Source: a virus
Lineage: Duplodnaviria; Caudoviricetes
DNA: 64,000 nt
Virus record (IMG/VR): IMGVR_UViG_3300025715_000009
Coordinates: 324,269 to 388,268 of that record
Direction: 5' to 3' (one strand)
Of this stretch, positions 26,435 through 41,720 are shown in pieces (the stretch's first letter is position 1; every line of letters starts with the position of its first letter). A program made the position numbers and the translations under genes. Under the pieces are notes generated by a model that saw only the letters and a list, made by a program, of their open reading frames with translations, made no database searches and was not told the DNA's origin.

Positions 26435-27097
26435 CTTACTACTTTCAGTTTCCTGAACCATCTTTCAATGTTGTAGTCTGGACTTTATCTTCATCGTTTT
26501 CAAGAGGTACGATGTCTTGCGTAAAGTCTCTGAGGAACCTATCAATACCATATTCTTCAATAAAATTTATTCCAGTTTTTTGATTATTCTTTGGTTGATT
26601 CATTCTTATACTAAAGCCACTTTCTTTTTTACAAGCTTCATTAGAAGAAATCCATACAATTTTTTCATTAAATGGATTATAAATTGCAAACCAATCAACA
26701 TCTTTTTCTGAATAAGTATATCTATATCCATTTGGACCAGATTTTTGAAGACGAAGTAGAACTTTTTCTTCATTACTTCCAGAATATTTTATTTGAATTT
26801 TTTTAAAATCCCCGATTTTTCTGCAATTAAATCAATCTTAGAATAATCACCAATTTCTGCAAAAACATTAAATTCATGTTTTTGTAATTCTAATACAACT
26901 GAAGAATATGCTATATTTCCTTTATGTTTTGTATGCATATAATAATATATGCTTAGGAAATCTAGTTTCCTGCGGATTGCCCAATCTTTTTGATTTTTAC
27001 TAGTTGCATAGTACAAAAAGCTCTAAGGGGTTTCCCGCATATAGCAAGATCCAGTATTTAGATTAAACCTCCTTTTTCTAAATACGCTCTTAATTTA
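26435..27097 (-). mobile_element. group I intron (663 nt) with endonuclease ORF in the P6 loop
   Basis: P ATGCGGGAAA, Q AATCCGCAGG, R TCAGAGACT, S AAGATAAAGTCC, P3 TCTTGC/GCAAGA, terminal G; IGS TTAAGAG pairs both exons. Confidence 0.92.
26445..26938 (-). pseudogene. intron-encoded PD-(D/E)XK homing endonuclease, frameshifted
   Basis: 494 nt versus 495 nt for the intact paralog; one A missing in the run at 26798-26804, and IQIKY... continues in the -1 frame. Confidence 0.85.
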
Positions 27098-27139
27098 AAG
27101 GGCGTTGCTCTACCATCTGAGCTAGCAGTCCAATAATAC

Positions 27140-27436
27140 TTAGTCTATAATTTCCTTGGAACGAACACCATAATCATGACCAATGTAATCAACTTTATAT
27201 TGCTTGCCATTTTCATTGGTGATAATGATTGTAAAGTTCCCAGTAGTAGAATCATCGCTAATATAGGCTTTAGCCTTAATTGTTTCGATTACCTGACCAG
27301 TGCGGGTATTCTCAATGACAATTTCACGATACAACCCACCACCAAAGTCAGATTTAACATTCTTGATGGTTTGTTGAAAAGACATCCCACAAGAAGTTAA
27401 CATTGCTACTAGAACTAGAACAACCATTTTCTTCAT
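27140..27436 (-). CDS. putative small lipoprotein
   Basis: MKK...LTSC lipobox. Confidence 0.6.
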   Translation of the reverse strand: MKKMVVLVLVAMLTSCGMSFQQTIKNVKSDFGGGLYREIVIENTRTGQVIETIKAKAYISDDSTTGNFTIIITNENGKQYKVDYIGHDYGVRSKEIID

Positions 27437-27629
27437 TTTATTCTCCTTTTGTTTTTAAAATATTTCCATATATTTGGCATTATTTTAAATATAATACCTC
27501 CTATTTTATAGGATATTATATTATTCCAAGACCCAACTTTACACATATGACAATCTGCATCAAATTCATGATGTATTGAACAAATTGAGAACCATTCTTT
27601 TTTCCAAAATAATTTACCTTTTGTCATAT

Positions 27630-27784
27630 TGAAGAAAGAAGGACTTGAACCTTCAACCGGATTACTTCATCTTTCTTAATAATATATTGATTGATTTCAT
27701 GGTACCATCCACCAATCTCAAAAAAGATAGATTTTTCATCTGCCGCATTTCCAAATGCCGTCTTTGCCATTTGACCATTTCTTC
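27630..27784 (-). ncRNA. tRNA-like RNA with a ~85-nt extra arm and non-canonical anticodon loop
   Basis: GAAGAAA/TTTCTTC acceptor, D arm, GCATTT-GG-AAATGC hairpin, long internal stem, GAAGG TTCAAGT CCTTC T arm. Confidence 0.6.
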
Positions 27785-27790
27785 ATTTTA

Positions 27791-28091
27791 TAGCCGGAGA
27801 GGGACTTGAACCCTCACGCCTTTGCAGGCAGGAGATTTTCTTACCACTATAGTTTTCACTACCATCTTTCAATGTTTGTGGTCTGGACTATATCTTCACC
27901 ATATCATTTCTGATTTAGGTGGTTGGCTCATAGTCTCTACACACGCCCAGAAGATTTCTCTTCTTGCTTGGCTCGGGGTTGGGTCGCATTTGCAGGCCAT
28001 TCTCCGAATTCGCCAACATTCACTTAGAAGTTTCCAATCTAAGTGCTCAAATAGTTAAAGTCTCCGGTGTCTACCATTCCACCATCCGGCC
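27791..28091 (-). tRNA. tRNA-Leu(UAA), class II, with a group I intron at 34/35
   Basis: GGAGA CTT | AAAA TCTCC, long variable arm, GAGGG TTCAAGT CCCTC. Confidence 0.92.
27840..28057 (-). mobile_element. group I intron (218 nt, no ORF), trnL(UAA)-type position
   Basis: P AATTCGGAGAA, Q AACCCCGAGC, R GTAGAGACTA, S AAGATATAGTCC, IGS TTTGAG, terminal G. Confidence 0.92.
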
Positions 28092-28213
28092 ATATATACT
28101 GTTTGATTGTTTAGCTCAAACAGTAAAGCATTCTATTTGATTAAGGTTCAAATAGCAAAACCTTTGAACCAGGCGGGACTCGAACCCACATAGACCTTAC
28201 GGTCACAGATTAA

Positions 28214-28876
28214 CTTACTACTTTCAGTTTCCTGAACCATCTTTCAATGTTGTAGTCTGGACTTTATCTTCATCGTTTTCAAGAGGTACAATGTCTTGCG
28301 TAAAGTCTCTGAGGAACCTATCAATACCATAATCATCAATTGATCTTACATTCTTTTTCTGTTTGTTTTTAACAGGATTTATACGTATATTAATCCCAGT
28401 ATTATATTTACAAACTTCTTTTGCTTTTACCCAAGCTATTTTTTTTGAATATAGATGATACACGGCAAACCAATCTACATCTTTTGATTTGTATGTATAT
28501 CTATATCCATTAGGTCCAGATTTTTTTATGTTTATAAAAACATAATCTTTAACGTATCCAACATATTTAATTTGAATTTTTCTTAATTCACCGCCCTTTT
28601 CTGCTATCAAATCAATTTTGGATACATCACCTAATTCTGAAAAAACATTAAAACCATTTTCTTGTAAAATCAAGACAACTGATGATTGTGCTATATTTCC
28701 TTTATGTTTTGTATGCATATAATAATATATGCTTAGGAAATCTAGTTTCCTGCGGATTGCCCAATCTTTTTGATTTTTACTAGTTGCATAGTACAAAAAG
28801 CTCTAAGGGGTTTCCCGCATATAGCAAGATCCAGTATTTAGATTAAACCTCCTTTTTCTAAATACGCTCTTAATTA
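28214..28876 (-). mobile_element. group I intron (663 nt), second copy
   Basis: Ribozyme segments almost identical to 26435..27097. Confidence 0.92.
28224..28718 (-). CDS. intron-encoded PD-(D/E)XK homing endonuclease (I-Ssp6803I/PDDEXK_5-like)
   Basis: MHTKHKGNIA...G..V...GD....DLI......RKIQIK...VDWFAVY; ATG start at 28718 preferred over the track's GTG. Confidence 0.85.
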   Translation of the reverse strand: MHTKHKGNIAQSSVVLILQENGFNVFSELGDVSKIDLIAEKGGELRKIQIKYVGYVKDYVFINIKKSGPNGYRYTYKSKDVDWFAVYHLYSKKIAWVKAKEVCKYNTGINIRINPVKNKQKKNVRSIDDYGIDRFLRDFTQDIVPLENDEDKVQTTTLKDGSGN

Positions 28877-29086
28877 AAGTCTGTTGCACAGCCTTTGTGC
28901 CACTGGTCCTAGTTAAGAATCTTGTTTAATAACTCCTGGGAATAAATAGTTGCTAGATAAGTATAATTCTTGTCATAGAGCCGAAAGACATCCCATTGCT
29001 TTGTTCCTTGAGCAGTACATACTTCAATAATATATCCATTAATATGCTTTACTTCTCTTACTTGACTCATTTATTACCTCGCATCT

Positions 29087-29757
29087 TTATATATGCTTAT
29101 TAATAAGATTATTTTTAATAATCTCTTGATTAAACCAATGAACATTGGTTTGAATATGGTTTGGTCTAACCCATTTTACTACACTCTTTCCCCAATCAAT
29201 AAGATCAATCTCATCAGCTAAACGCATTACAAAACCTTCTTGATTATTACGTAATGTATTTGGCAAAGCTTTAATCAATAATTCATCAAAAATACCATCA
29301 TAAAGAACAGGCACTGTAGAAATATCTAATTGTCTTGCAATTTCTATAGTTTCATCCCAATTAAAACACAGTTGTTTTTCCCATACATTGAACAATAAAA
29401 AATAAGATTCAAGATCTTGATAATGGATTGAATGTTTAGCATATAAATTTTCTCCACAAAGTCTAAATCCAATATGTTTCAAATCATCTGGCATTTTATC
29501 AGCTGTTTTTATAGAAAATGCAGTTACCCAATGTCTTGAAGGATGATTACAGGAATCAATAGATCTTGCGTGACATATTCCACTTGGATAAATGGTTGTA
29601 TTTTCGCCATCCATTTTTTCTGTAATAACAACTCTTTTCCCTATAAATGCAGAAAGATCATGTTGCACCTTATCATCATTACTTTTCCCTGGAGACCATG
29701 GAAGATGAAAGGTTTTTGGATATTTAGTATACAAGGTTCTTGGATATTCTTCATGCA
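29087..29757 (-). CDS. RNA ligase family nucleotidyltransferase
   Basis: KYPKTFHLPWS, TEKMDGEN, CGEN, EGFVMR, KWVR. Confidence 0.85.
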
Positions 29758-29774
29758 TAGTATTAAAAAACGAT

Positions 29775-29878
29775 GAGGTTGCTTTTATAATTGTTGCCAC
29801 CTCCCAAATCAATCAATATCTGTTATATAAAAACTAGGGTTGCTTTTATAATTGTTGCTACCCTAAATCAACCAATGT
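29775..29878. repeat. two tandem ~42-bp hairpin repeats, 61-bp period
   Basis: GGTTGCTTTTATAATTGTTGC(C/T)ACC...AAATCAA.CAAT at 29777 and 29838. Confidence 0.85.
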
Positions 29879-29925
29879 CCGCCGACTTTCTTGCAAGTGT
29901 TGAAAGTCTAACAATCACCCGGATT

Positions 29926-30272
29926 TAAGGCAGTCAGGATTTGAACCTGAAAGGGTTATACTTACTTATCACCAGACTATTCACACCCTTCTATCTTGGA
30001 AAATCTAAGGCCCTAAGATAGAGTGGATATCAAGCACTGCTTGACTCCCCCGTCTGGTCTGCCTACCCCCTCTTGACGCTTTGGGTTCTCTTTCGCAAGA
30101 TAGTCTTCAACGAAGCTGCTATCTCGTCCAGATACTGCGGTGGATAGAACGACTAATAATTTTTTACTTATTCTTCTTGACCTCCACTAGTCTTTCAGAA
30201 TAAGGCAGCAAAGTTAAATTAATTTAAGTCCATCAACTTAATGTAAGCTGTTGCTGCACCAACAACTGGACT
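29926..30272 (-). ncRNA. unassigned structured RNA ending in a tRNA T arm and acceptor strand
   Basis: ORF-free; stems AAGTCCA/TGGACTT, CTTATTCT/AGAATAAG, ACCAGAC/GTCTGGT, TCTATCTT/AAGATAGA; 3' TCAGG TTCAAAT CCTGA CTGCCTT A. Confidence 0.55.
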
Positions 30273-30273
30273 T

Positions 30274-30346
30274 TAGGAGCACAGGGATTTGAACCCTGAC
30301 TTTCAACTTTATAAGAGTTGTGTGCTGACCGTTACACTATGCTCCA
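30274..30346 (-). tRNA. tRNA-Ile(UAU)
   Basis: CAACT CT TAT AA AGTTG; complete cloverleaf with a U1.U72 mismatch. Confidence 0.85.
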
Positions 30347-30366
30347 TCGCTTGATTTATTATACTC

Positions 30367-31068
30367 TCAAATCCCCTTCTCTAAACTATTTAAAAACTTT
30401 TCAAATTCATTTTTTACAAAATCAGAATTAAATTTACCTAAATCCTTAATTATATATGCTTTATATCCACATTTTTTTATTTCTTTTAATTTTATTTTAT
30501 CTCTTGTTTGAATTTGTAATAAGCTTTGTTGTCTTTTAATTTTTTTATAATGCCAAATTCCATTCCATAAAATAGCTATATTTAAATCTTCTATAATTAT
30601 ATCAGCATCCCAACCGTTGAAACAAGGTATATTATTTTTTACACTAACAAAATGTGATTGACACATTTCATAAAATAAAATTTCATTTAATGACCTTCTT
30701 TTTTGACTAGAAGCTGATTTTTTGCCTCCATTTCTAGCATTTTTTAAAAAATCACTTCTATTGTTTTGTATGTAATTTATAAAAGCACTTTTACCATATT
30801 CTCCATTTTTATATCTAATAGAATATGTTTTAGCTTGTTTTTGAAGTCTTTCATCAGTTAATTTATTTAAATTTTTATTCCAAGCTATTCTTCCTTTTTG
30901 TCCTAAACCTGTTTTTTCACCATGATTTATACCATTTCCATGACTTCTCCAAATATGAGAACAGATTCCATTTTTAGAATAAAGTTTATCACAAATAGGA
31001 CATTTATATTTTAACGTTTTTTCATCTAACCAATTTTTATCTAAAACAATTTTAATTTCTTTATTCAT
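30367..31068 (-). CDS. free-standing homing-type endonuclease (C2H2 finger, NUMOD-like, Vsr-like PD-(D/E)XK)
   Basis: CPICD...H...H, AWNK, WDADIII....IAI.WNG.WHY, RD..K. Confidence 0.7.
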   Translation of the reverse strand: MNKEIKIVLDKNWLDEKTLKYKCPICDKLYSKNGICSHIWRSHGNGINHGEKTGLGQKGRIAWNKNLNKLTDERLQKQAKTYSIRYKNGEYGKSAFINYIQNNRSDFLKNARNGGKKSASSQKRRSLNEILFYEMCQSHFVSVKNNIPCFNGWDADIIIEDLNIAILWNGIWHYKKIKRQQSLLQIQTRDKIKLKEIKKCGYKAYIIKDLGKFNSDFVKNEFEKFLNSLEKGI

Positions 31069-31087
31069 TTATTTTAAATATGCCTAA

Positions 31088-31687
31088 TTAATCCTCTTTT
31101 TTCTTTTTAAACTCAGCAATCATTTTCTTGTTCTTTTTGTTCAACCTATCAAGAACTTCTTTTCCTTCCATCCAAATGTCTTTGTTGTCTAGAATTTGCT
31201 GTATTTCTACTTCAGTTAGAAAATCTTTATAAATAGTTTTCATCAAATTATCACTCCATTTTTTAGCATGGGTGATGTTATCATACATTTCTCCACCTTT
31301 TCCAGCAGTTATACTACTATAGTTGTGGAACATGAAATCGCTGAACTCACTTATTTCTATTTGCTGAGCACTCATAATTATGAAGGTAGCGGCTGACATA
31401 CAATCACCTTCAACTGATGCTATAACAGTTGCGTTAGTCTCTTTTAAGACACGCATCAATTGAATGGCCGTAGAGGCATCTCCTCCACGAGAGTTGATAT
31501 GGATAATTATAGTATCATTCTCTGTGGCGTTACGCATGAGATGAAACCACTCTGCATACTTTTCTGGTTGTTCAATTGCACCAGAAAGATAAAATTCATG
31601 TTTAAATCCTAAAGGGACACTGTAATAAGTTGTTTTTTGAGCCACTGGAAGACCTAGTTCATCGCTGGTATCAAATTGTTTATCCAA
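31088..31687 (-). CDS. ClpP-family protease
   Basis: IHINSRGG, CMSAAT (catalytic Ser), FMFH, DIWM. Confidence 0.85.
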   Translation of the reverse strand: MDKQFDTSDELGLPVAQKTTYYSVPLGFKHEFYLSGAIEQPEKYAEWFHLMRNATENDTIIIHINSRGGDASTAIQLMRVLKETNATVIASVEGDCMSAATFIIMSAQQIEISEFSDFMFHNYSSITAGKGGEMYDNITHAKKWSDNLMKTIYKDFLTEVEIQQILDNKDIWMEGKEVLDRLNKKNKKMIAEFKKKKED

Positions 31688-31704
31688 ATTTTGCTCCTTT
31701 TAAC

Positions 31705-31776
31705 AGCACATATCGGGAATCGAACCCGAATCCGAACCTTGGCAAGGTCCTATAATAACCTTTATACTATATGTGC
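31705..31776 (-). tRNA. tRNA-Gly(GCC)
   Basis: GGACC TT GCC AA GGTTC; U73; overlaps the tdk stop codon. Confidence 0.9.
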
Positions 31777-32297
31777 ATTTTTGTAAAATAACATTTGGCA
31801 CAAAGAGCTGTATATGCTTGTTGTCCTCCTACAACTACTTTTTCAGTTTTATTTCCTTCTTTAAAATAAGTATAATTACCAAGTTCATTACCACACTCAG
31901 TACATATGGCATTTAATTTAATTATGCTATCGCAATATGGAATTGTCTGCACTATCTCATCAAACATTTCGCTTTCACTAGTTGCATGCAGAGCAGATAT
32001 ATATATGTCTTTATTGTTATAGTTTGCTTTGATTATAAAATTTTTTAATGATTTATGAAATTGTCCTTCATCAATTCCAATTACGTCATAATTAGATAAA
32101 TCAAAATTTGATAAGTCAGAAATAAAAGCAGTTTTTAACCATTTAATCTCTTTTTGACTATGGCTCAAGAATCCACGATTATCAATTTCTGGTCTTAATA
32201 GAATTACTCTTTTTTTAGCTATATAAGCTCTTTCTAATTTTGTTAGTAATTCACTTGTTTTGCCTGAAAACATTGGTCCTAGTAATAATGTTATCAT
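31767..32297 (-). CDS. tdk: thymidine kinase
   Basis: GPMFSGKTSEL, IGIDEGQF, AIC..C, GG...Y.ALC..C. Confidence 0.93.
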   Translation of the reverse strand: MITLLLGPMFSGKTSELLTKLERAYIAKKRVILLRPEIDNRGFLSHSQKEIKWLKTAFISDLSNFDLSNYDVIGIDEGQFHKSLKNFIIKANYNNKDIYISALHATSESEMFDEIVQTIPYCDSIIKLNAICTECGNELGNYTYFKEGNKTEKVVVGGQQAYTALCAKCYFTKMHI

Positions 32298-32744
32298 TCA
32301 ATTTCTTCTTTCCATCTTTTATGAAATGATTCTTCACCATCATCACCACTTAAAAGCCAATCAATTCTACCAACCATAAGAGATGCTTTTTTTAATATAT
32401 CAATTGTTTCTCTAAATTTAGCCAATGTTTCTGATGAGAAATTTTGACTAAATCCAAATTCATCTACTTTATTATTTTTCTCTATTGCTCTTTCTATTTC
32501 GTCTGCTATATCTGTTAATCTATATTGATTGTAATCAAAGTAACCACCGCTCATATTATTCTCCTTTAGAAGAAATATGCTTTTCGTTATACTCCTTTAC
32601 TTGATCAATCAAATAATCCATAAAATGAAATCCATGTAATTTTTGGAGTTTTATCAACTCCTCTTCAATATGTTTGAGCATGTCTTTGTCCATCACACCT
32701 CCTTTTTTTTAATAATATATCTTGCAAAAAAGAAGAGAGAAAAT

Positions 32745-32818
32745 TAGCCCTCTTGGGATTTGAACCCAAATTTATACGGTCTAAACGTATTGACTCTGCC
32801 AAATTGGTCTAGAGGGCC
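32745..32818 (-). tRNA. tRNA-Leu(UAG), short variable loop
   Basis: ATACG TT TAG AC CGTAT AAAT TTGGG TTCAAAT CCCAA; A73. Confidence 0.88.
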
Positions 32819-32830
32819 AAAAGATTTAAA

Positions 32831-33472
32831 TTAATTATTTGTTTTTTTTTTTTTTTGGATTCTTCCTTTTTTCCATCCAAAAGGTATTTGTTCTTCTTTA
32901 TTAATTTTTTTATTAATTATATCATTTGTAATCCACATAGTATTATATTGGCTATTTTTAGAACCTTGTTGATGTTTAATTTTAGCAAAAGTTTCTTTCT
33001 TTCTATTTATTGTGTCTAAACTATTAGCTTTTTTACTCATCTTTATAAGACGATTCAAATTTTCCTTAGAAACAAGATATCTATTTCTTTTTTCAACACT
33101 ATATTCAGAAAACATCCCCATACTATTTTCATATAAATATTTTCCACAAATTTTACCACCAATTTTTCCTGCTTTGGATAAAATATTAAAATCTGCTCCT
33201 CTACCACCAGTAGATATATTATATGTATCTTCTCTTAAGATAAAACCTGTATTAACTATTTCGATTTCTTTTTGAAACATATCATTTTCATTGTCAAAAA
33301 ATTCTAATATTTCTTTTTTAAAGTTTTTTAATCCATATTTATCTTGTGCGTGTTTTAATATAATTCCAGAGCCCATATAATTGTCATCTAAATTATTAGT
33401 ACGATGAACACCAATGTAAATTCTACCATTTAATAAATTAGTAATTTTATATAAATAATAATATGTATACAT
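32831..33472 (-). CDS. GIY-YIG homing endonuclease (Seg-like)
   Basis: YLYKITNLLNGRIYIGVH...YMGSG...YG..NF.KEIL...E, YN...GG, C-terminal WITN...GW..GR. Confidence 0.9.
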   Translation of the reverse strand: MYTYYYLYKITNLLNGRIYIGVHRTNNLDDNYMGSGIILKHAQDKYGLKNFKKEILEFFDNENDMFQKEIEIVNTGFILREDTYNISTGGRGADFNILSKAGKIGGKICGKYLYENSMGMFSEYSVEKRNRYLVSKENLNRLIKMSKKANSLDTINRKKETFAKIKHQQGSKNSQYNTMWITNDIINKKINKEEQIPFGWKKGRIQKKKKTNN

Positions 33473-33525
33473 ATTATTATCTTATAAGGAACTATTAATT
33501 AAATTAAGTTCGATTTAATAATTAT

Positions 33526-33597
33526 GGGTCCCAACGGGAATCGAACCCGTATTTAGAGATTGAAAATCTCTCGAACTGACCGTTGTTCGATGGGACC
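33526..33597 (-). tRNA. tRNA-Glu(UUC)
   Basis: GGTCCCA...AGAGA TT TTC AA TCTCT...TGGGACC. Confidence 0.9.
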
Positions 33598-33602
33598 AGG
33601 TT

Positions 33603-34070
33603 TTATAACTTTTTTTCTTTCTGCATTCTCTTTGTAATTTCTCGTGCTTCAATTTCCCAAGGAGAGGAATAATAATCTAAATCTTCAAATTCACCTAGTC
33701 TTTTTTTCTTCCAAAAAACAAACACATTATTACTTCTTAATTGATAACAGACCCAAGACATTTTACCACTTGTATATTGTTTTACATGGACAAGTTCATG
33801 CATTAGTGTTCTTAATAAATGATACCTTTTAGTAATCAAATCCTTTCTTATATAAATAAGATGTTTATTTGGTGGTTTTTTATTTGGTCTTGTAATGGGT
33901 GCAAGACAATAAACCCCCATAACTTTTTTTGATTGATTAGGTATTTTTTTTACAAATCTAATAATAATGTTTTCTGTATTTTTTATACCAAGAAGTTTAA
34001 TATATTTTTCTACTTTATTCTTAATATAAAGAGTTTTTCTTTTTTCAAGATTTAATATATTAACATTCAT
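33603..34070 (-). CDS. zincin-like metallopeptidase
   Basis: TLMHELVHVKQ and PWEIEA. Confidence 0.75.
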   Translation of the reverse strand: MNVNILNLEKRKTLYIKNKVEKYIKLLGIKNTENIIIRFVKKIPNQSKKVMGVYCLAPITRPNKKPPNKHLIYIRKDLITKRYHLLRTLMHELVHVKQYTSGKMSWVCYQLRSNNVFVFWKKKRLGEFEDLDYYSSPWEIEAREITKRMQKEKKL

Positions 34071-34073
34071 AAA

Positions 34074-34147
34074 AGCGCTATAAGGGATTCGAACCCTTAC
34101 CTTCAGAGTGGAAGTCTGGAGTGCTAGCCATTAAACACCAATAGCGC
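34074..34147 (-). tRNA. tRNA-Gly(UCC)
   Basis: CCAGA CT TCC AC TCTGA; U73. Confidence 0.9.
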
Positions 34148-34151
34148 ATGA

Positions 34152-34223
34152 TGCTCCTACCTGGGTTTGAGCCAGGAATCGCGACTTTATAAGAATCGAT
34201 GGGAGACCCTCCCTCCTAGGAGC
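34152..34223 (-). tRNA. atypical tRNA with anticodon UAU (Ile)
   Basis: GCTCCTA/TAGGAGC; CGATT CT TAT AA AGTCG; lacks U8; T loop CTCAAAC. Confidence 0.6.
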
Positions 34224-34228
34224 AAGTA

Positions 34229-34303
34229 TACCCTCAGTGAGATTCGAACTCACACTGTATAGGTTCTTAGCCTATTGCCATCTACCAGTTGGGCTATGAG
34301 GGC
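34229..34303 (-). tRNA. tRNA-Leu(AAG), short variable loop
   Basis: ATAGG CT AAG AA CCTAT ACAGT GTGAG TTCGAAT CTCAC; A73. Confidence 0.88.
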
Positions 34304-34543
34304 ATGTCTTCAAGCATTAATCTATATTGAATATGATGACCAAAAGAATCTTCGGTTATCCATTCTTTTTTATCTATTTTTAATTTATCAGCAAAAAAAT
34401 CTGTTAAAAAAACAAAAGCCTCTTTTGTATTTGTTATTTTTATTGATTCTGTTTTTTCTTCTGTTGAGGAATAAAACAGATGATAAGTCTTTTTTTCCTT
34501 TTTAATAATCAAACCATTTTCAGCTTCATAAATCTCCATTAAC

Positions 34544-34939
34544 TTACGCATTTTTTACCTCTTTTTCATTATCATATATTGCAAAAAACTTGTTTCCATC
34601 TGTATGTGTATCCACAAAAATCATAGTATATTTTTCACCTCTATAAATCCATTTACTATAAAATCTTTGAGTGTAGATTTCATGTTCATAACTATTTCCG
34701 TCTCTATCTTCTACAAACTCTTTTGTTTCATGAAATGTAACTCCTTGAGACTCAGAGGGTTCTAATTTCTCACCGGTCTGTTTTTCATGCATTTCTCTCA
34801 TCCAAGATGCATATTCAGGTGTAATTTTCCAGTACATTTCTGTATAATCTTCTATAGGATAAATAACATAATCTTCAACAAATCCAACATGGTCATAAAT
34901 TGCTTGTTTAGCCTTATTAAAATCATCAATCAAACTCAT
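34544..34939 (-). CDS. hypothetical protein, paralog of 34952..35233
   Basis: Shared YPIED.TEM.W, IYR..KYT, G.KF.AIYDNEKE. Confidence 0.75.
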   Translation of the reverse strand: MSLIDDFNKAKQAIYDHVGFVEDYVIYPIEDYTEMYWKITPEYASWMREMHEKQTGEKLEPSESQGVTFHETKEFVEDRDGNSYEHEIYTQRFYSKWIYRGEKYTMIFVDTHTDGNKFFAIYDNEKEVKNA

Positions 34940-34951
34940 TTTTATCTCCTA

Positions 34952-35233
34952 TCAAGTAAAATAATATGGAGGAGGCTTGATTTCTTTTTCATTATCATAT
35001 ATCGCCAAGAATTTACCTTCACCCATATTAAGTTGAATAACCATCAAAGTATATTTCCCTTGACGATAAATATGCTCATCACAGATTGTATCAATATGAT
35101 AATCCCAATCTGACATAAATCCTTCTAATGTCGTAGAGTATCTAACACCTAAGCCAATCATAAATTTGTCATTCACTTGCCAAAACATCTCGGTTCTATC
35201 CTCTATAGGATAGTCTACATCCTGATTAAACAC
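34952..35233 (-). CDS. hypothetical protein, paralog of 34544..34939
   Basis: Tandem paralog. Confidence 0.65.
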   Translation of the reverse strand: MFNQDVDYPIEDRTEMFWQVNDKFMIGLGVRYSTTLEGFMSDWDYHIDTICDEHIYRQGKYTLMVIQLNMGEGKFLAIYDNEKEIKPPPYYFT

Positions 35234-35246
35234 TCTAAATTCCTTA

Positions 35247-35321
35247 TGCTCCTAGATGGATTCGAACCCTCATCTTATAGATTCTTAGCCTATTGCTATC
35301 CATCAGTTGGGTTATGATGGC
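35247..35321 (-). pseudogene. chimeric pseudo-tRNA-Leu(AAG)
   Basis: 5' part resembles 34229..34303, 3' end resembles 35977..36051; acceptor strands GCCATCA/TAGGAGC pair poorly. Confidence 0.75.
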
Positions 35322-35348
35322 ATATAGCAAGTTTCCCTGCGTTAAGAA

Positions 35349-35774
35349 CTATGCTAAAATCTTGTCAATACAAGATTTAGCAATTTTCATATCCATTCCA
35401 GGAATTGACTTTAGAACTGGCATAATGTTTTTTACCACTTTTTCTTCATCAGGTAAAGAATTGATTACTTCTTTAACCTTTGCAAGAATTTGTTCTTCTG
35501 TCAACCCTTGTGGAATGAACTCTTCAAGGATAGTGATCTCACGCTCAAGGTGTGAATAATCACCATTTCCTTTTTTATATTCTTCGATTGCCTTCAAAGC
35601 TTCATTCTTCATTTTTTTAGCAGCTGAACCAATGTCATCGTCCATTACTTCACGAAGTTGGGTTTTAGCTGTTTTCTTGGCATTATCAACAAGCATACCA
35701 AGAACTGAAGACCTTTCAGGATTTGTCAATCTTATGACAATCTTTTCTTTGAGCAATTCTTGAATTTTATTCAT
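35349..35774 (-). CDS. GatB/YqeY-domain protein
   Basis: AIEEYKKG......E.EI.ILEEFIP..LTEEQI...V...I. Confidence 0.75.
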   Translation of the reverse strand: MNKIQELLKEKIVIRLTNPERSSVLGMLVDNAKKTAKTQLREVMDDDIGSAAKKMKNEALKAIEEYKKGNGDYSHLEREITILEEFIPQGLTEEQILAKVKEVINSLPDEEKVVKNIMPVLKSIPGMDMKIAKSCIDKILA

Positions 35775-35976
35775 TTTTTCCCCTATAGATTAATTTTTCT
35801 AATTTTAGCTTTTCCACAAATTTTACAACGTGAAATTTGTTTTAAATATCTTCCTGTGGGAAAATTTGTACTATTTCCAAAACCATCACCATATAACGCG
35901 GTAATTCCTACGTCTTGCCATTCTCCGTATTTATGGAAATGAAGCTTCATTTTTAAACCTCCAAATGTTTTTTTTA

Positions 35977-36051
35977 TGCTCCTAGAGGGATTCGAACCCT
36001 CACTTGATAGTTTTTGAAACTATTGCCATCTGCCAGTTGGGCTATAGGAGC
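35977..36051 (-). tRNA. tRNA-Leu(CAA), short variable loop
   Basis: ATAGT TT CAA AA ACTAT CAAGT GAGGG TTCGAAT CCCTC; A73. Confidence 0.9.
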
Positions 36052-36056
36052 AAATA

Positions 36057-36137
36057 TGCGGCCGGAGAGACTTGAACTCTCAATCCTTTCGGCACTAGCA
36101 CCTCAAGCTAGCGTGTATTCCGTTCCACCACGACCGC
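36057..36137 (-). tRNA. tRNA-Leu(GAG), class II
   Basis: CTAGC TT GAG GT GCTAG plus long variable arm. Confidence 0.92.
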
Positions 36138-36808
36138 GTTAAACCTCATTTTTATAACTCTCTTGTAATTTATCCCAATAACCATCTTCATTCTGATAGC
36201 GGATGACTGCCTGCACCTCTTCTGGGAAAGAGAGTCTCATCCTCTCTAAATTACCCCTATCTGCTTTGAAAATAGCTTGAAATAGGTTGTTAAAAAATGA
36301 ACCAGACATATCATTCATAAATTCAAATAGATGGCGCTCTCCCTCTGTCATTTTTTCTCTCCTTAAATAGTTCTTTGTAATAATCAATAATCTTGGAAGT
36401 TATATCTGTATGAAAATGCAAGAAATAACGAACAAATTCATCTTGCTTTCTTCCTCTAGTCAGCTGCTCCATATATGCTATGAACTCACTGAAAACAGGG
36501 TTTTTTGACTTTTCTACTAGTTCTTGTTCAAACTTTTTATACTTTCTCTTATGTTTATTAACGTATTCCTCTACTTCAATATCCATCTTTTTCTCCTTAG
36601 GAAATTGTTTCTAAGATAGTAATAGAATTTATAGAGTAGTAGACTGCATATTCTTGTGTCATATCATTAAAATATGCTTCAACTTTCTGATAGGCTTGTT
36701 TTTCATCATCAGCCTCGACAAGTCTAAATTCAGCCTTCTCTTCACCATGGTCGTGCATATAATACGTTTTAGTATAAGAAACTTGTGCTAAAAATAACAT
36801 ACTTCCTC

Positions 36809-37747
36809 CTAACATCCTCTACCAGAGCCACAGCATCCACCACCTCGAATGGAAGTAGATTTTTTCTTTCTTGACTCTTCGCCAAGATGAATTAGTCCTT
36901 CTTTTGCCATTTTAACAATCTGATTAGGTGTATATAATTCATCTTCTAGAGTTATAATTTCCTCCTTTCCTTCCCAATCCATTGTCAATTTACCATTTTG
37001 CTGATAAATAAGTTCATATACACTATCAGTAATTGTCTCTTTTGGTTCTGCCATTGAACTCTTCCACTGAACTTTCATACCCAAGATAAGCTGTTCTTTA
37101 GTGTAGCATACAGGACATTTGCCAACATAAAGTGGTTTATAATCATTAAAGAATAATTCCTGATTTGAAGGTTCAAGATTACCATGTTGTTTACGAAAAG
37201 CAATGGAAGAAAAATTACTCTGTTTAGCAAATTGAATAAATTCTTCAATGCTCTCTCTAGAATCATATTCCTCTGTCAAAACACAATTAGCATTTACATC
37301 AATTCCAATCTTGTTCAGTTTATTGATAAGCTGAACAAGGCTATCATTTGATGGGATGGTATCTGTTCCAAACATTTCCATATTTTTATCATTATCATGA
37401 TGATGGCGACTTATATTCACATGAAATTTTGTTTTGGTTTTTTTAAGTAGTTTTTCAATTTCTGGAATATATGTTTCTAGATTACAACCATTAGTTGTCA
37501 ACACTACTTTAGAAAATTTAGCAAAAGCAATTTTCAGAACATCAATAAAATGAACTGAAAGTGTAGGTTCTCCACCGGTAAGTGAACACTGTTTAAAATG
37601 TGATGGAATAGAAAGTAAAGTAGATTTAAGCTTTTCTAGATAATCTTCACTTGCCTTTTCTTCTTTCCAGAAACAGAAAGAGCAGTGAGCATTGCATCCA
37701 CCAGGGAGAACAATAGAAAAATTAGGTTCTGTGTTAAAGGTTTTCAT
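36809..37747 (-). CDS. radical SAM protein
   Basis: CNAHCSFC, LTGGEPT, LTTNG; Gly/Cys tail GGGCCGSGRGC. Confidence 0.88.
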   Translation of the reverse strand: MKTFNTEPNFSIVLPGGCNAHCSFCFWKEEKASEDYLEKLKSTLLSIPSHFKQCSLTGGEPTLSVHFIDVLKIAFAKFSKVVLTTNGCNLETYIPEIEKLLKKTKTKFHVNISRHHHDNDKNMEMFGTDTIPSNDSLVQLINKLNKIGIDVNANCVLTEEYDSRESIEEFIQFAKQSNFSSIAFRKQHGNLEPSNQELFFNDYKPLYVGKCPVCYTKEQLILGMKVQWKSSMAEPKETITDSVYELIYQQNGKLTMDWEGKEEIITLEDELYTPNQIVKMAKEGLIHLGEESRKKKSTSIRGGGCCGSGRGC

Positions 37748-37772
37748 TGTATCCTCTTATGTTTATTTGTTT

Positions 37773-37800
37773 ATTATACAATGTTTTTCCTTTGTCTAAA
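37773..37800 (-). promoter_or_regulatory. early-type promoter TTTAGA-N16-TATAAT
   Basis: Motif match upstream of the radical SAM gene. Confidence 0.7.
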
Positions 37801-37803
37801 CTA

Positions 37804-37875
37804 TAGTCCCTACGAGAATCGAACTCGTATCTAGACCTTGAGAGGGTCTCGGCCTAACCATTAGCCGAAGGGACC
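37804..37875 (-). tRNA. tRNA-Glu(CUC)
   Basis: AGACC CT CTC AA GGTCT. Confidence 0.92.
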
Positions 37876-37877
37876 AA

Positions 37878-37996
37878 GTTGTTGATTTTCTCCACTAGGG
37901 AGAGGCTCTCATTTCGTTCATATAAGCTCGTAGACCTGAGAATTTTCAAGCATTTTTGCTTTACTTTCCAGGGCGAGGTGAACTAAAATCATCAAC
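37878..37996 (-). ncRNA. putative structured RNA between two tRNAs
   Basis: Ends pair (GTTGATGATTTT/AAAATCAACAAC) and it fills the inter-tRNA gap. Confidence 0.45.
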
Positions 37997-38003
37997 GTCC
38001 TAT

Positions 38004-38077
38004 TAGTCCTGACGAGATTCGAACTCGTTCCTTCACCTTGAAAGGGTGACCACCTAACCAATTAGTAAGACAGGACC
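38004..38077 (-). tRNA. tRNA-Glu(UUC)
   Basis: TCACC CT TTC AA GGTGA. Confidence 0.9.
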
Positions 38078-38618
38078 ATGTAATTACGGCTCTACATTAA
38101 GACCAGCAATAACTCCTTCGATAAATTCTTCCTTATAAACTATACGGGTAGAGGTTTTCTCTATCCCTTCACGAATTACACTACCAACAAGTGTACCCAT
38201 ATCAAAATCATTATGAATGCCAAATTTCTTGTAAGCAGATTTAATTATAATCGAAATCATTTCTTCAGCTTTCATCTTATAATCTCCTTGCATAAGATTA
38301 TACACTATAATATATGCTTTCTAAAAATTTTTTGCAAAGTAACTGTCTTCTTCTTCAAAAAGATGTTTTATGGTATTTCTTTTTAAGTTCTCCGCTTCAA
38401 CTTCTTGAATTTCTTGACCATAATAGAAATGTTTATCATATAGATAGAACTTATCACCGGCAATATCATAAAACCAGACATGTATGCTTTCTGGTACAGT
38501 ATCAGGTTTTCCTACTAGAAATGTTTTCATAGAAGAGGATGAAGATATTCTATAAAAATGTCCAGGTTTTGCATCTTGTGTTTTCATATAGTTATCTTGT
38601 TTAAATTATGCAAAATAA

Positions 38619-38691
38619 TGAACCCAGCAGGGGTCGAACCTGCGACGAATAGATTAAGAGTCTATCACTCTACCAACTGAGTTATGGGTCC
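38619..38691 (-). tRNA. tRNA-Lys(CUU)
   Basis: ATAGA CT CTT AA TCTAT; G2.U71. Confidence 0.93.
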
Positions 38692-38820
38692 AAAGATAAA
38701 GATCTACTAAATCTTTATCAAGGAGTTTTTACCTCACCAAATAAGATTTCAAAATAAAAGCTTTTAGTAGTCTTTTATTTTTCTATGCAAATTTAGCTTC
38801 TGGGTATCCCTCAAACCATA

Positions 38821-38893
38821 TTGCAGCGACAGGAGTCGAACCTGCTATCTTCACCTTATGAGAGTGATATGAATTCCGTTTCACCCCGCTACA
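38821..38893 (-). tRNA. tRNA with anticodon CAU (Met/fMet-like)
   Basis: TCACT CT CAT AA GGTGA; TGTAGCG/CGCTGCA. Confidence 0.8.
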
Positions 38894-38895
38894 AT

Positions 38896-38969
38896 TGAAC
38901 CTAGTAGGATTTGAACCTACAACCTTCGGGTTAAAAGCCCGTCGATCTACCAGATTGATCTATAGGTCC
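38896..38969 (-). tRNA. tRNA-Lys(UUU), intronless
   Basis: ACGGG CT TTT AA CCCGA; G2.U71. Confidence 0.93.
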
Positions 38970-39061
38970 ATAAAACTGAGGTTTATTAAATCACTCCACT
39001 TTATAGACGTCATCATTTGTGGTGATATTTAATTCCTCAGGGGAAGTGCGACTTCCCAGAA

Positions 39062-39133
39062 TGAGCGGTAGAGGAGTCGAACCTCTCTTGACTGGATTAA
39101 GAGGCCAGCACATCACCGATCTGTCAACCGCCC
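39062..39133 (-). tRNA. tRNA-Lys(CUU), atypical
   Basis: CTGGC CT CTT AA TCCAG; GGGCGGT/ACCGCTC; weak D stem. Confidence 0.75.
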
Positions 39134-39214
39134 AAATAAGAAACCCTTCTCTATATTATCAAGGAACAATGGTGAGAGAGGGGCTTGAACCCTCGATGGG
39201 CACCATTTATTATA

Positions 39215-39288
39215 TAGTGACGAGTGGACTCGAACCACTGCATAACTGGTTTATGGGACCAGGGCATTACCTTCTTTGCTACGTCACC
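39215..39288 (-). tRNA. nested tRNA with anticodon CAU (Met/Ile2), C33
   Basis: GGTGACG...CTGGT CC CAT AA ACCAG...AGTGG TTCGAGT CCACT CGTCACT A. Confidence 0.85.
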
Positions 39289-39965
39289 AAATAATCTAAG
39301 ATAGACTTTCCATTTTTTATTGCATTAATTTCTTTTCTTTTTAAAACAATCAATTTTTCATTAAACTGGCTCCATTTTGCTTTATCTTTTTCAGTTTCAT
39401 ATCCTTTAACTTCTATATAAATATTTAAATTTTCTATATAAAAATCAGGATAATAAATCTTATTTTTATTATGAAATAAATAAGTAAATCCCGTTGGTTT
39501 TTTAGGAATAATATTATTTTTTCTTAATTCATAATAGACTAATTCCTCCCATGATCCCAATAATCCAAATCCATCAATTTCTTTATATTTTACATATCCT
39601 CTGTTATATCTACCAGAATATTGTTCAGCTTTTTCTATAGCAACTTTTTTCATTGATTTAGAGATTTTTTCTTTTGTTTCATCAGATAAACTTTTACCTT
39701 TTAATTGATGAATAATTTCTCCACTTTTGTATTTTTCTTTTAATGTATCAGAACATTTCTTATGCCAATTAGGATGTTCATTTTGCCAATCCTTAGAAAA
39801 ACAACCTTTCACTTTTGAATAAGATTCTGGGTGTTCTTTATGTGCTTTTTTTCCTCCTTCTGAATTTTTCTTTTTAGCTTCATCTGTTTTTGGATAGCAT
39901 GAGTTACAATAGCCAGTAATAGAAGAATCAGAAATTTCTTTATAACAATTTTTACAAAATTTCAT
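39279..39965 (-). CDS. homing-type endonuclease (Zn finger, NUMOD3, TnsA-like PD-(D/E)XK)
   Basis: CKNC...C..C, LSDETKEKIS, SWE, YYPDFY...YIEVKG; stop codon lies inside the nested tRNA. Confidence 0.8.
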   Translation of the reverse strand: MKFCKNCYKEISDSSITGYCNSCYPKTDEAKKKNSEGGKKAHKEHPESYSKVKGCFSKDWQNEHPNWHKKCSDTLKEKYKSGEIIHQLKGKSLSDETKEKISKSMKKVAIEKAEQYSGRYNRGYVKYKEIDGFGLLGSWEELVYYELRKNNIIPKKPTGFTYLFHNKNKIYYPDFYIENLNIYIEVKGYETEKDKAKWSQFNEKLIVLKRKEINAIKNGKSILDYLVT

Positions 39966-40038
39966 ATATTTATCTGTCTCCCAATTATTAAAAAATTAAA
40001 AGTGCTGCCTTACCAACTTGGCTATCTCACCATAAAAA

Positions 40039-40108
40039 GAGGGTGTTCTACCGATTAAACTACCGCCCCTTTTTAGGGGCAGATGGGGCTCGAACCCATA
40101 TCTCCCTG
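40039..40108 (-). ncRNA. circularly permuted tRNA-like gene (YrlA-like topology)
   Basis: CAGGG AGAT ATGGG TTCGAGC CCCAT CTGCCCC TAAAAA GGGGCGG TA GTTT AATCGGTA GAAC A CCCTC: T arm, then looped acceptor stem, then D arm. Confidence 0.75.
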
Positions 40109-40112
40109 GTTG

Positions 40113-40186
40113 TCCTGATCCTGGGATTCGAACCCAGACATGACCTGATCTTCAGTCAGGTGCGCTACCAATTGCGCTAAATCAGG
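40113..40186 (-). tRNA. tRNA-Phe(GAA)
   Basis: CCTGA CT GAA GA TCAGG. Confidence 0.88.
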
Positions 40187-40191
40187 ATAAA

Positions 40192-40366
40192 ATCAATCTC
40201 ATTCGTCCCTTTTCAGACCATAACCTTTGCTTAGGTTTCACAAGGTAGGAACTATTTGCCTCCTTAAGCATGGAATTCCTTTTCGATAGCTACTATATGG
40301 TATTTCAACCACCACTCTTATTTAATCGTCCATAGATTAAATAAGTTTTTGCTACCGGAGATTGAT
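40192..40366 (-). ncRNA. putative ~175-nt multibranch structured RNA
   Basis: Terminal ATCAATCTC/GAGATTGAT; internal CTTATTTAATC/GATTAAATAAG, ACCATA/TATGGT, TGCTTA/TAAGCA. Confidence 0.55.
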
Positions 40367-40368
40367 AT

Positions 40369-40451
40369 TGCCCAGTGTGGGAGTCGAACCCACTGAACCT
40401 TAGGTGACGATTTTACAGACCGCTCCGCTTCCGATTACGGGATACCTGGGC
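40369..40451 (-). tRNA. tRNA-Tyr(GUA), class II
   Basis: GCGGT CT GTA AA ATCGT plus variable arm. Confidence 0.88.
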
Positions 40452-40487
40452 AAAAACTTGGGCCGGGTAGGACTCGAACCTACGGTA

Positions 40488-40573
40488 TGGGGAGTGAAGG
40501 AATCGAACCTCTTCGCCGCCACCTACCTTTTATATGACAAGTGATTTACAGTCACCCGGCAGGAACACTCCCC
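40488..40573 (-). tRNA. nested atypical tRNA-Tyr(GUA) with reduced D arm and enlarged variable arm
   Basis: GGGGAGT/ACTCCCC; GGTGA CT GTA AA TCACT; bulged T stem with TTCGATT loop. Confidence 0.65.
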
Positions 40574-41085
40574 GTAATAATTTTGCCATTTTTTACATAA
40601 TAAAATTTTTTCCAAGAATCTCCTATATAATCTTGCATATTTACTAGCTTATCAAATTTAAGAACCCCTGAATGAACTAGTCTATGACAATTTGGGCAAA
40701 GATATGTTAAATTACTCATCTCATCAGTTCCGCCCTTTTTCTTTTCAACAATATGATGTACATCACAAGATACATTAACAACATACCATCCACAAAAAAA
40801 ACATGGCAATTCCATTCTTCTTAAAATTTTCATAACAGTTCTTTTGCTTAAATCCATAATTGAAGTTACTTCTGTTTCTCTTACATAAGAAGCATGTTTT
40901 TCTTTATTCTTTTTTTGCCTCTTTTGTTCTAATGTTAAGCCATCTTTTCTTAACTTTTTAGAAACTTTTTTATTTATTTCTTTTCTTTTTTCTTTTGTAC
41001 TAAACCCCCTAGCACATGTAGAAGAACAAAATCTTCTTGACCCATAAGAACCATCATGCTCTTGTCCACAATTTTCACATTTCAT
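40552..41085 (-). CDS. HNH endonuclease
   Basis: Start MKCENCG; CFFCG...DVHHI....GG..E.SNL..LCPNCH; stop codon lies inside the nested tRNA. Confidence 0.88.
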   Translation of the reverse strand: MKCENCGQEHDGSYGSRRFCSSTCARGFSTKEKRKEINKKVSKKLRKDGLTLEQKRQKKNKEKHASYVRETEVTSIMDLSKRTVMKILRRMELPCFFCGWYVVNVSCDVHHIVEKKKGGTDEMSNLTYLCPNCHRLVHSGVLKFDKLVNMQDYIGDSWKKFYYVKNGKIITGSVPAG

Positions 41086-41195
41086 ATTCGAACCCCCTAA
41101 GATATATTTATCTTTACAGTTAGTTCGAATACAGTTAATTTTATTATAAAATTTACAGTCTCTTGCCTTCGCCGCTAGACTACCGACCCATAATA

Positions 41196-41268
41196 TGCCA
41201 GAGGTCAGAATTGAACTGACGACAAACAGATTTTCAGTCTGCTGCTCTACCAACTGAGCTACTCCGGC
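41196..41268 (-). tRNA. tRNA-Phe(GAA)
   Basis: GCAGA CT GAA AA TCTGT; canonical. Confidence 0.95.
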
Positions 41269-41720
41269 ATTTCTCCTTCTCTAAATTGTCAATAAAAAAG
41301 CTCCCATTTTCATGGGAGCTTGTAATCACTTCTTTATATGACTACTACTCCCTGAACATGTCTCCTTCAAGTTCCATGCCTTTGAGTATAAAATAATACT
41401 TTTTAAAAGTAATAGTCATTTGCTTTTCCTTTCTCCTATATATATGCATTTATCTTACACAATTTTATCAAAAAGTACAATTTTTCTAAAAATTTTTCCA
41501 AGCATTAGTCATAATCTGGACGTCTTCTTCATCTATCTCAAGAGCATCCAGGGCAGCAGCAACTCGACGCTTGGAATCAAAGAAAGTTCTATTTCTCTCA
41601 CACCAAGGACATCCACCATGAGGGCGACAAGTCTTATCATACTTACCAGCTCCATAATAAGGCTTGCGATGTTCCTTGCCATGACGAATAGCTTTGTCCA
41701 GCATGTTGCCTCCTAAAAAG

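Follow-up and report, generated by a model that had tools for sequence, protein, structure and literature searches.

Background

In bacteriophage T4, segB is a free-standing nuclease open reading frame (ORF) whose stop codon is parted from the ORF by maturation of the next transfer RNA (tRNA), tRNA-Arg; the SegB protein recognises a tRNA T-arm motif and promotes its own inheritance along with that of the surrounding tRNA genes (PMC2330249). Homologues of segB are widely associated with tRNAs (PMC13096335). The Lak megaphages have strain-variable tRNA "enigmatic introns", one of which, in tRNA-Thr(TGT), is predicted to encode a tRNA, and an alignment of Lak alleles places the insert boundary away from the predicted splice point (bioRxiv 10.1101/356790). 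This report concerns two elements in a 64,000-nucleotide (nt) stretch of DNA, the window, which is the final 64 kb of the IMG/VR phage record IMGVR_UViG_3300025715_000009 (388 kb, ~98 % complete, 30 % G+C). The phage occurs in anaerobic-digester and activated-sludge metagenomes and has at least 59 tRNA genes, all of them on the minus strand. The elements, e1 (39170-40031) and e2 (40459-41189), are also on the minus strand, and each consists of the two halves of a broken tRNA gene with a nuclease gene and a tRNA or tRNA-like sequence between them. An earlier reading of the window, the original prediction, noticed this layout and offered two explanations for it: a mobile nuclease cassette that carries its own tRNA and thereby pays for the gene it disrupts, or a non-self-splicing tRNA intron.

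The elements share several properties with the described systems. As with SegB and the F-Tfl enzymes of phage T5, a free-standing nuclease gene lies in a tRNA array, its ORF runs into the next tRNA, and the apparent target is in tRNA genes; as with SegB, the nuclease gene moves together with adjacent tRNA genes and occurs in some close relatives but not in others. SegB itself, a GIY-YIG enzyme, is encoded between tRNA genes; it swaps whole blocks via homologous flanks and leaves no remnant. In contrast, e1 and e2 have PD-(D/E)XK-fold and HNH enzymes, for which cleavage is presumed, together with a same-anticodon tRNA inside the broken target, and both remnants of the target are kept. Similar to Lak, the host of the elements is a huge phage with a tRNA-sized element nested in a tRNA gene and an insert that is missing from some strains; the text of the Lak preprint, however, mentions no nuclease gene in the inserts and reads them as introns (bioRxiv 10.1101/356790). 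Compared by the preprint's description, the Lak inserts look like the same phenomenon, unexplained there, and provide a lead.

Group I introns in tRNA anticodon loops, such as that of I-Ssp6803I in cyanobacterial tRNA-fMet and those at 26396-28909 of the window, also combine insertion in the anticodon arm, a nuclease ORF and strain variability. The elements e1 and e2 differ from these in having no ribozyme, no precise excision and a deletion of target bases, and it is a second tRNA gene, not splicing, that would make good the function of the broken one, if anything does. The nrdA gene of Aeromonas phage Aeh1 is reportedly split by mobE, a free-standing nuclease gene inside a host gene with no intron or intein, and the protein pieces are said to work together; the tRNA pieces of e1 and e2 cannot cooperate, as essential nucleotides are missing. 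Archaeal split or permuted tRNAs (bulge-helix-bulge) likewise have complementary halves apart in the genome, but there a splicing endonuclease and a ligase assemble complete halves, whereas the halves of e1 and e2 are incomplete and no such endonuclease was found. The original prediction knew of no described element with this layout. A literature search returned no account of a nuclease and a same-anticodon tRNA nested within the broken target gene; T4 segB and the Lak tRNA "introns" are partly similar, and the statement has to be qualified accordingly.

Results and discussion

Empty alleles in a sibling strain

Contigs from four public runs were compared across window positions 27500-41400. 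A sibling strain has intact tRNA genes at both split sites, which provides the empty-site alleles of the outer tRNAs that the original prediction had suggested looking for. The Logan contig L025 (1,901 nt), recovered through a variant of a flanking 72-amino-acid (aa) protein, aligns with the window in three blocks of 98.8, 99.8 and 98.5 % identity. At the split sites ARAGORN calls an ordinary 84-nt tRNA-Tyr(GTA) and an ordinary 75-nt tRNA-Met(CAT) in this contig. In DNA run X7, and in X10 of the same study, position 39204 is joined to 40001 with 796 nt skipped, and 40486 is joined to 41149 with 662 nt skipped and 13 other letters in between. The same X7/X10 strain precisely skips the 663-nt group I intron of a tRNA-Lys gene (28213-28875), which serves as an internal control. 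The presence or absence of each cassette thus has sharp boundaries, with differences of 796 and 662 nt in flanks that are 98.5-99.8 % identical.

Comparison of the alleles shows what each insert replaces. The empty Met gene reads GCACT-CTCATAA-GGTGC, and in the filled e1 the 796-nt insert substitutes the whole 7-nt anticodon loop CTCATAA. The empty Tyr gene reads CTGTAAA-TTT-CCCACATAGAAAC-ACC-GTAGG, and in the filled e2 the 662-nt insert substitutes the middle 13 bases, which belong to the anticodon stem and variable arm. Since the empty alleles hold functional sequence that is missing from the filled ones, they cannot have arisen from the filled ones by deletion; the filled alleles result from insertion with a small loss of target. 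The outer tRNAs are therefore not merely interrupted, as had been supposed, and excision cannot restore either of them because 7 nt (e1) and 13 nt (e2) are missing. In both elements the anticodon of the carried tRNA is that of the broken gene, CAT in tRNA-Met(CAT) and GTA in tRNA-Tyr(GTA), and both alleles also have intact genes for Met(CAT) and Tyr(GTA) no more than 400 nt away. It is very likely that e1 and e2 are DNA insertions of a mobile unit, made of a nuclease gene and a tRNA, into tRNA genes of the same anticodon, and that these genes were destroyed as a result.

Further searches did not add to the empty alleles. A search of phage collections gave generic tRNA matches only, an exact search of viral contigs for both 5' halves gave only a 99.9 % identical copy of this phage, the empty-junction patterns had no match in viral or JGI metagenome contigs, and the radical-SAM gene, used as an anchor, gave only distant relatives. 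Short-sided joints such as 40484>41236 and 40098>41243 have sides of 20-26 nt with foreign letters between them; they were rejected as tRNAs of other organisms aligned to the T arm and to tRNA-Phe.

Organization of the e1 and e2 elements

The order of 5' half, nuclease, inner tRNA and 3' half was predicted twice within 2 kb, and it is present in four independent assemblies (L017-L020) at 99.9-100 % identity and also in L006. ENA, two JGI and Logan assemblies from different samples agree on the filled layout. Contigs of run X5 span both inserts with zero mismatches. Both pairs of outer acceptor strands, GGTGAGA/TCTCACC in e1 and GGGTCGG/CCGGCCC in e2, pair 7/7 as stated.

The outer 5' remnant of e1 (40001-40031) corresponds to positions 1-31 of tRNA-Met(CAT), with the acceptor strand GGTGAGA, the D arm and the 5' strand of the anticodon stem, GCACT; it is identical to the 5' part of the intact 75-nt gene (L025 1196-1270). 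The 796-nt insert (39205-40000), bounded by the joint seen in X7 and X10, contains a 35-nt leader with a GGGAG ribosome-binding site, the nuclease ORF, a tRNA-Met(CAT) and a 10-nt tail. The ORF (39279-39965) encodes 228 aa, and its TAG stop (39279-39281) falls inside the inner tRNA-Met(CAT) (39215-39288), an overlap of 10 nt. This inner tRNA is called by ARAGORN, scores 55.8 bits with the Rfam tRNA model (RF00005) and has a canonical cloverleaf; its oddities are C33 and a G1.U72 pair. The outer 3' remnant (39170-39204) has the 3' strand of the anticodon stem, GGTGC, followed by the variable loop, the T arm, the acceptor strand TCTCACC and a discriminator A. Its T loop is TTCAAGC in the window versus TTCGAAT in the empty allele. 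The three substitutions (39186, 39184 and 39183) are clustered 18-21 nt from the junction, in adjoining flanks that do not differ otherwise, a pattern that a short co-conversion tract could leave. The junction sequence alone would make the outer tRNA of e1 a UAA-anticodon tRNA, a reading that is rejected because the empty allele shows CAT.

Reassignment of TAG throughout the genome was also considered for this phage, and it was rejected since code 11 gives dense coding and TAG terminates 31 of the 265 long ORFs. A public gene call on the sibling contig had read TAG as Q (L025 173-412), and the genome has a tRNA with anticodon CUA, the amber suppressor type (C1:293264-293335). Hypothetical TAG readthrough would lengthen the e1 ORF by 4 codons only.

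In e2, the outer 5' remnant (41149-41189) corresponds to positions 1-41 of tRNA-Tyr(GTA) and is identical to L025 688-728. It contains the acceptor strand GGGTCGG, the D arm, the 5' strand of the anticodon stem, the loop CTGTAAA and the first 3 nt of the 3' strand. The 662-nt insert (40487-41148), again bounded by the X7 and X10 joint, contains a 63-nt leader, the HNH ORF (40552-41085) and a tRNA-Tyr(GTA)-like element (40488-40573). The outer 3' remnant (40459-40486) has the last 3 nt of the variable region, the T arm, the acceptor strand CCGGCCC and a discriminator A, and is identical to L025 742-769. An intact tRNA-Tyr(GTA) called by ARAGORN (40369-40450) is present in filled and empty alleles alike; therefore, the broken e2 copy is redundant.

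The inner element of e2 has a 7-bp acceptor stem, an anticodon arm with the CTGTAAA loop and a T arm with one mismatch. Aligned with Tyr tRNAs, it has no D arm (~6 nt in its place) and a variable region of 26 nt. Its first 22 nt are the final 6 sense codons of the HNH ORF, the TGA stop and 1 base. Neither ARAGORN nor RF00005 calls it as a tRNA, the tRNA-Sec model (RF01852) gives 22.6 bits, and its minimum-free-energy fold is not a cloverleaf; the neighbouring accepted tRNA-Tyr itself scores merely 25.8 bits. The claim that the nuclease stop codon lies in a second tRNA holds for e1, where that tRNA is a solid tRNA-Met; in e2 the stop codon lies in a tRNA-Tyr-like element. Judged by their sequences, the carried Met copy looks usable and the carried Tyr copy is probably not. 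The inner tRNAs had been thought to end 4-5 nt before the outer halves; judged by the empty alleles, the actual distances are 10 nt in e1 and 1 nt in e2.

The leader of e2 (41086-41148) has T-loop-like motifs, GGGGGTTCGAAT abutting the ATG and TTCGAAC earlier, and there is a weak full-length Rfam tRNA alignment (17.8 bits) over 41121-41189. These motifs may be relics of an older tRNA context. The intron mode of ARAGORN reports e2 as a tRNA-Tyr with a 650-nt intron, taking TCCTT of the inner T arm for the 3' strand of the anticodon stem, with an A.C mismatch. This call was rejected because a 4-of-5 match in ~20 offsets is, by our estimate, expected by chance and because the true 3' strand in the empty allele differs.

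The nucleases and their relatives

The nuclease types given in the original prediction, PD-(D/E)XK in e1 and HNH in e2, are upheld. The e1 ORF has an N-terminal CCHC zinc finger, NUMOD3-like helices and a C-terminal catalytic domain; the zinc finger and NUMOD3-like segment are the usual modular build among homing enzymes. It matches phrog_15137, "endonuclease", at 3.6e-17, and the motif P173-D174...E185-x-K187 is invariant in its family (202 homologues found). A sequence search of solved structures found nothing and a fold search was required. The AlphaFold model has a pLDDT (predicted local distance difference test) of 97 across the C-terminal domain, and its top structural match is the catalytic domain of I-Bth0305I, followed by Bax1, PvuRts1I, T7 endonuclease I and TnsA. 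On the strength of the model, the ORF encodes a putative homing-type endonuclease of the PD-(D/E)XK fold. The e2 ORF encodes 177 aa with an N-terminal Cys-rich module and a Pfam HNH match (5.8e-11), and the product is a putative HNH homing-type endonuclease.

Relatives of both enzymes are found with tRNA genes. Relatives of the e2 HNH protein occur in eight other viral contigs, in tRNA arrays in every case. The homologues of the e1 nuclease that were sampled are all in tRNA arrays (4/4), and three of the four adjoin tRNA-Met(CAT). Of eight related loci, six have a nuclease ORF that either extends 7, 8 or 27 nt into the downstream tRNA or ends 5-7 nt upstream of it. The nuclease-tRNA unit is conserved across related phage loci. 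Within this genome the nucleases share modules: the e1 catalytic domain is common to the enzyme at the His locus and to ORF 300493-301302, N-terminal modules are common to the His-locus, Val-locus and strain-B 251-aa proteins (described below), and a paralogue of the e2 HNH protein, 35 % identical, is at the Thr locus (genome 306053-306586).

On contig L027 (1589-1991), two tRNA-Met(CAT) genes adjoin an e1 nuclease homologue on the opposite strand; one is intact, and the other is interrupted at position 39 by 244 nt, which might represent a small group I intron or one more scar.

Other nested or broken tRNAs

The whole genome was scanned for orphan T-arm/acceptor ends with a fully complementary 5' partner bearing a D arm. 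The scan yielded e1, e2, three group I introns, a 155-nt tRNA-like RNA (27630-27784) and a duplicated 3' half of tRNA-His. In both e1 and e2, no D-arm-bearing partner other than the 5' half lies within 3.5 kb. The Val locus of this genome is a third nested case, with a 5' piece at genome position 315982, a 249-aa ORF that ends within tRNA-Val(TAC), and a 3' piece directly after. The His and Thr loci have nuclease genes with orphan 3' halves. An independent nested case is present on the marine contig L031, in the order 5' half (GGGCCTT, with a canonical D arm), intact tRNA-Met(CAT), nuclease and 3' half (AGGGCCC). This order differs from that of e1 and e2; the 3' half begins right past the nuclease stop codon, and the 3' strand of the anticodon stem is missing. 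Similarity to intact tRNAs did not discriminate the isotypes of the Val, His and Thr remnants. The remnants range from e1 (minus 7 nt) and e2 (minus 13 nt) to Val, with short end pieces only, and to lone 3' halves, which looks like a series of insertion scars and not a conserved RNA-processing device.

Two other tRNA-like sequences of the window have unusual structures. At 40034-40111 (minus strand) there are permuted orphan halves, a 3' half (T arm and CTGCCCC) separated by 6 nt from a 5' half (GGGGCGG, D arm and an anticodon-stem strand). The acceptor strands pair 7/7, the halves are present in filled and empty strains, and there is a weak match to Rfam YrlA (24 bits). The 155-nt RNA at 27630-27784, also on the minus strand, has a very long extra arm and aligns end to end with the Rfam tRNA model at 36.7 bits.

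Proposed mechanism

A possible route begins in a co-infected cell, where a phage without the cassette would have its intact tRNA-Met(CAT) or tRNA-Tyr(GTA) gene cut by the nuclease, within or beside the anticodon arm. A few bases would be resected from the break, and repair would then copy the cassette from the cassette-bearing genome, guided by homology in the tRNA remnants and the DNA that adjoins them on the outside. The carried tRNA may be too diverged to be cut, as by hand alignment about half of ~35 positions around the site are shared; the cassette-bearing genome would thereby be immune and would nominally keep a tRNA of that anticodon. The nested form could have arisen when a nuclease-tRNA unit was captured in its broken target without homologous flanks, with the remnants later acting as homology arms. 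The outer halves would then be scars with no function at the RNA level. Processing of the transcript at the inner tRNA probably strips the stop codon from the ORF and would limit nuclease expression, as proposed for T4 segB.

The anticodon match is, we think, most simply explained by nuclease specificity, since, in the manner of intronless homing, the gene of a free-standing nuclease would have as its neighbour a form of the target gene that resists cutting. A further and more tentative suggestion is that the cassettes are natural "cleave-and-rescue" drives, in which a tRNA gene is lost to the nuclease and the cassette makes up for it with a tRNA that has that anticodon and resists cutting; this is possible but rather doubtful.

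Several points weigh against insertion of a mobile unit as set out here. The specificity of the e1 and e2 nucleases for the empty sites is deduced from position. The T-loop cluster in e1 could be decay after inactivation, and no donor genome with a diverged flank was found. The junctions have neither target-site duplication nor microhomology that would account for the first capture event. The rescue function of the carried tRNA is doubtful for e2, which has no D arm, and unproven for e1, given C33 and the G1.U72 pair. The same-anticodon rule comprises two directly verified cases, and the Val, His, Thr and L031 fragments gave no isotype. Of the first explanation in the original prediction, the mobile nuclease cassette is thus borne out by the empty sites and the shared anticodons, whereas payment for the disruption is unproven, with a defective-looking Tyr copy and intact genes nearby.

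Alternative explanations

The other explanation in the original prediction was a non-self-splicing tRNA intron, in which RNase P and 3' processing would cut out the inner tRNA and a phage RNA ligase would rejoin the outer halves. Phage RNA ligases are well known to repair cut tRNAs, and this phage encodes two Rnl2-type ligases in the window and an RtcB elsewhere in the genome. Perfect acceptor, D and T stems are kept in both sets of outer halves, and the anticodon stem of e1 can still pair (GCACT/GGTGC). However, the target nucleotides are absent from the filled alleles (the CTCATAA loop in e1; 13 nt of stem and variable arm in e2), and ligated halves would be neither a Met nor a Tyr tRNA; e1 would give at best a Met body with a UAA-type loop. 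For regenerating the outer tRNAs this explanation is refuted. The boundary between 5' remnant and insert also has no defined cut, one ligase gene is missing from sibling strains, and the tRNA splicing endonuclease (PF01974) was not found in the 98 %-complete genome in a search with positive controls, although host enzymes may differ. No joint confined to RNA is seen at e1 or e2 in contigs from RNA libraries (X6, X10), as the X10 joints are also present in DNA run X7; such contigs could miss rare spliced RNA, so this result is neutral. Overall, a non-self-splicing intron is very improbable. Degenerate or unusual group I introns, with a ribozyme core hidden in or overlapping the nuclease ORF, might be expected, as tRNA-Lys and tRNA-Leu genes at a distance of 11-14 kb hold three genuine group I introns, some with nuclease ORFs, and the inserts of e1 and e2 are likewise in the anticodon arm. 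As predicted, neither insert has a group I core: over 39150-41200 the group I model (RF00028) gives nothing at E<=10, although in the same search it detects the Leu intron at 58.4 bits and, in part, both ORF-bearing tRNA-Lys introns. Sequence that is neither ORF nor tRNA amounts to just 35+10 nt in e1 and 63+1 nt in e2, and 45 and 64 spare nt are too few to hold a ribozyme. The terminal nucleotide of both inserts is T instead of G, exon nucleotides are missing, and the e1 nuclease has no significant sequence similarity to PDDEXK_5 intron ORFs. Group I introns of this kind are extremely improbable here.

Illegitimate recombination among tandem tRNAs could also rearrange such an array passively, with the nucleases as bystanders and the anticodon match a result of recombination between similar tRNAs. 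Genes for an RNA ligase, a radical-SAM protein and YqeY also vary between the strains, the YqeY gene is flanked by a tRNA-Leu and its decayed copy, and the orphan halves at 40034-40111 have no adjoining nuclease. On the other hand, each insert is exactly one nuclease-tRNA unit, from tens of nt before the start codon to 1-10 nt past the tRNA. The inner and outer tRNAs are alike at about half of the positions near the junction (hand alignment), which is too few for homologous exchange, and the layout recurs with three nuclease types and on an unrelated marine contig. Passive rearrangement is therefore unlikely. An assembly artefact, a chimeric join of tRNA-rich repeats, deserves mention since tRNA arrays are rich in repeats and the junctions are close to places where Logan contigs break off (L021 stops 2 nt away from that of e2). 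The identical filled layout in the ENA, JGI and Logan assemblies and in L006, along with the X5 contigs that cross both inserts without mismatch, excludes the mis-assembly that the original prediction had named as a possible refutation, and the probability of an artefact is negligible.

Strain variation across the tRNA array

The insertions are part of a wider pattern, as the tRNA array is a hot spot for the presence or absence of nuclease genes between strains that are ~98 % identical. Strain B is the strain of both L025 and L033, and strain C is a third strain, that of L034. A GIY-YIG (SegE-like) ORF (32831-33472) is a simple insertion (32820-33527) flanked by tRNA-Glu(TTC) and tRNA-Leu(TAG); in strain B (L033 1073-1225) a single nt separates these two genes. 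Identity falls to 94 % in the flank downstream of the insertion, in the manner of a co-conversion tract. A 233-aa zinc-finger ORF is in some strains and missing from others. In strain B (L033 2216-2971 versus window 31700-31751), a 251-aa C2H2-finger/NUMOD3 ORF replaces the 3' two-thirds of tRNA-Gly(GCC), and the insert at this broken gene has no replacement tRNA.

Introns vary in the same array. The 663-nt intron of tRNA-Lys(TTT) (28213-28875) is missing from strains B and C. The intron of tRNA-Leu(TAA) is 218 nt in the window (27792-28091 region) versus 705 nt in strain B (L033 4598-5387), where it carries a 157-aa HNH-like ORF.

Other genes are also affected. Strains B and C lack 685 nt (29081-29765) that include most of an RNA ligase ORF (29087-29812; Pfam RNA_ligase 6e-31); therefore, the ligase gene is itself a variable module. 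The region 35247-36052 contains tRNA-Leu(CAA), a YqeY-like ORF (35349-35774) and a decayed copy of that tRNA (Rfam 22.9 bits). Since strain C (L034) has one tRNA-Leu and no YqeY, a non-nuclease gene was inserted together with a tRNA duplication. The radical-SAM gene (36809-37747, region 36802-37803) is apparently missing in strain C, where L034 joins tRNA-Glu(CTC) almost directly to the downstream genes. The RtcB matches, at C1:112723-114798 of the genome, are in two pieces ~1.25 kb apart in one 737-aa open frame, and the part between them may be an intein or another in-frame insert.

Conclusions

With the empty alleles at hand, an exotic RNA-processing idea gives way to a testable account at the DNA level. 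Loci of this kind should not be annotated as intron-containing tRNAs. Candidate recognition sites for the two nucleases, both uncharacterised, follow from the comparison of filled with empty alleles. Insertion of nuclease-tRNA units also provides a simple explanation for several puzzles of huge phages, namely tRNA inserts that are not group I introns, tRNAs within tRNAs and the many orphan halves. If the cassettes were cleave-and-rescue drives, selection would retain them and serial invasions would keep rewriting the tRNA arrays of huge phages, which would explain orphan halves, pseudo-tRNAs and the "enigmatic tRNA introns" of megaphages. The results suggest that several unrelated families of homing nucleases, each moving as a fusion with a tRNA gene, are the main force that reshapes tRNA arrays in large phages, and this turnover bears on how phages gain and lose the tRNAs that counter host anticodon nucleases.

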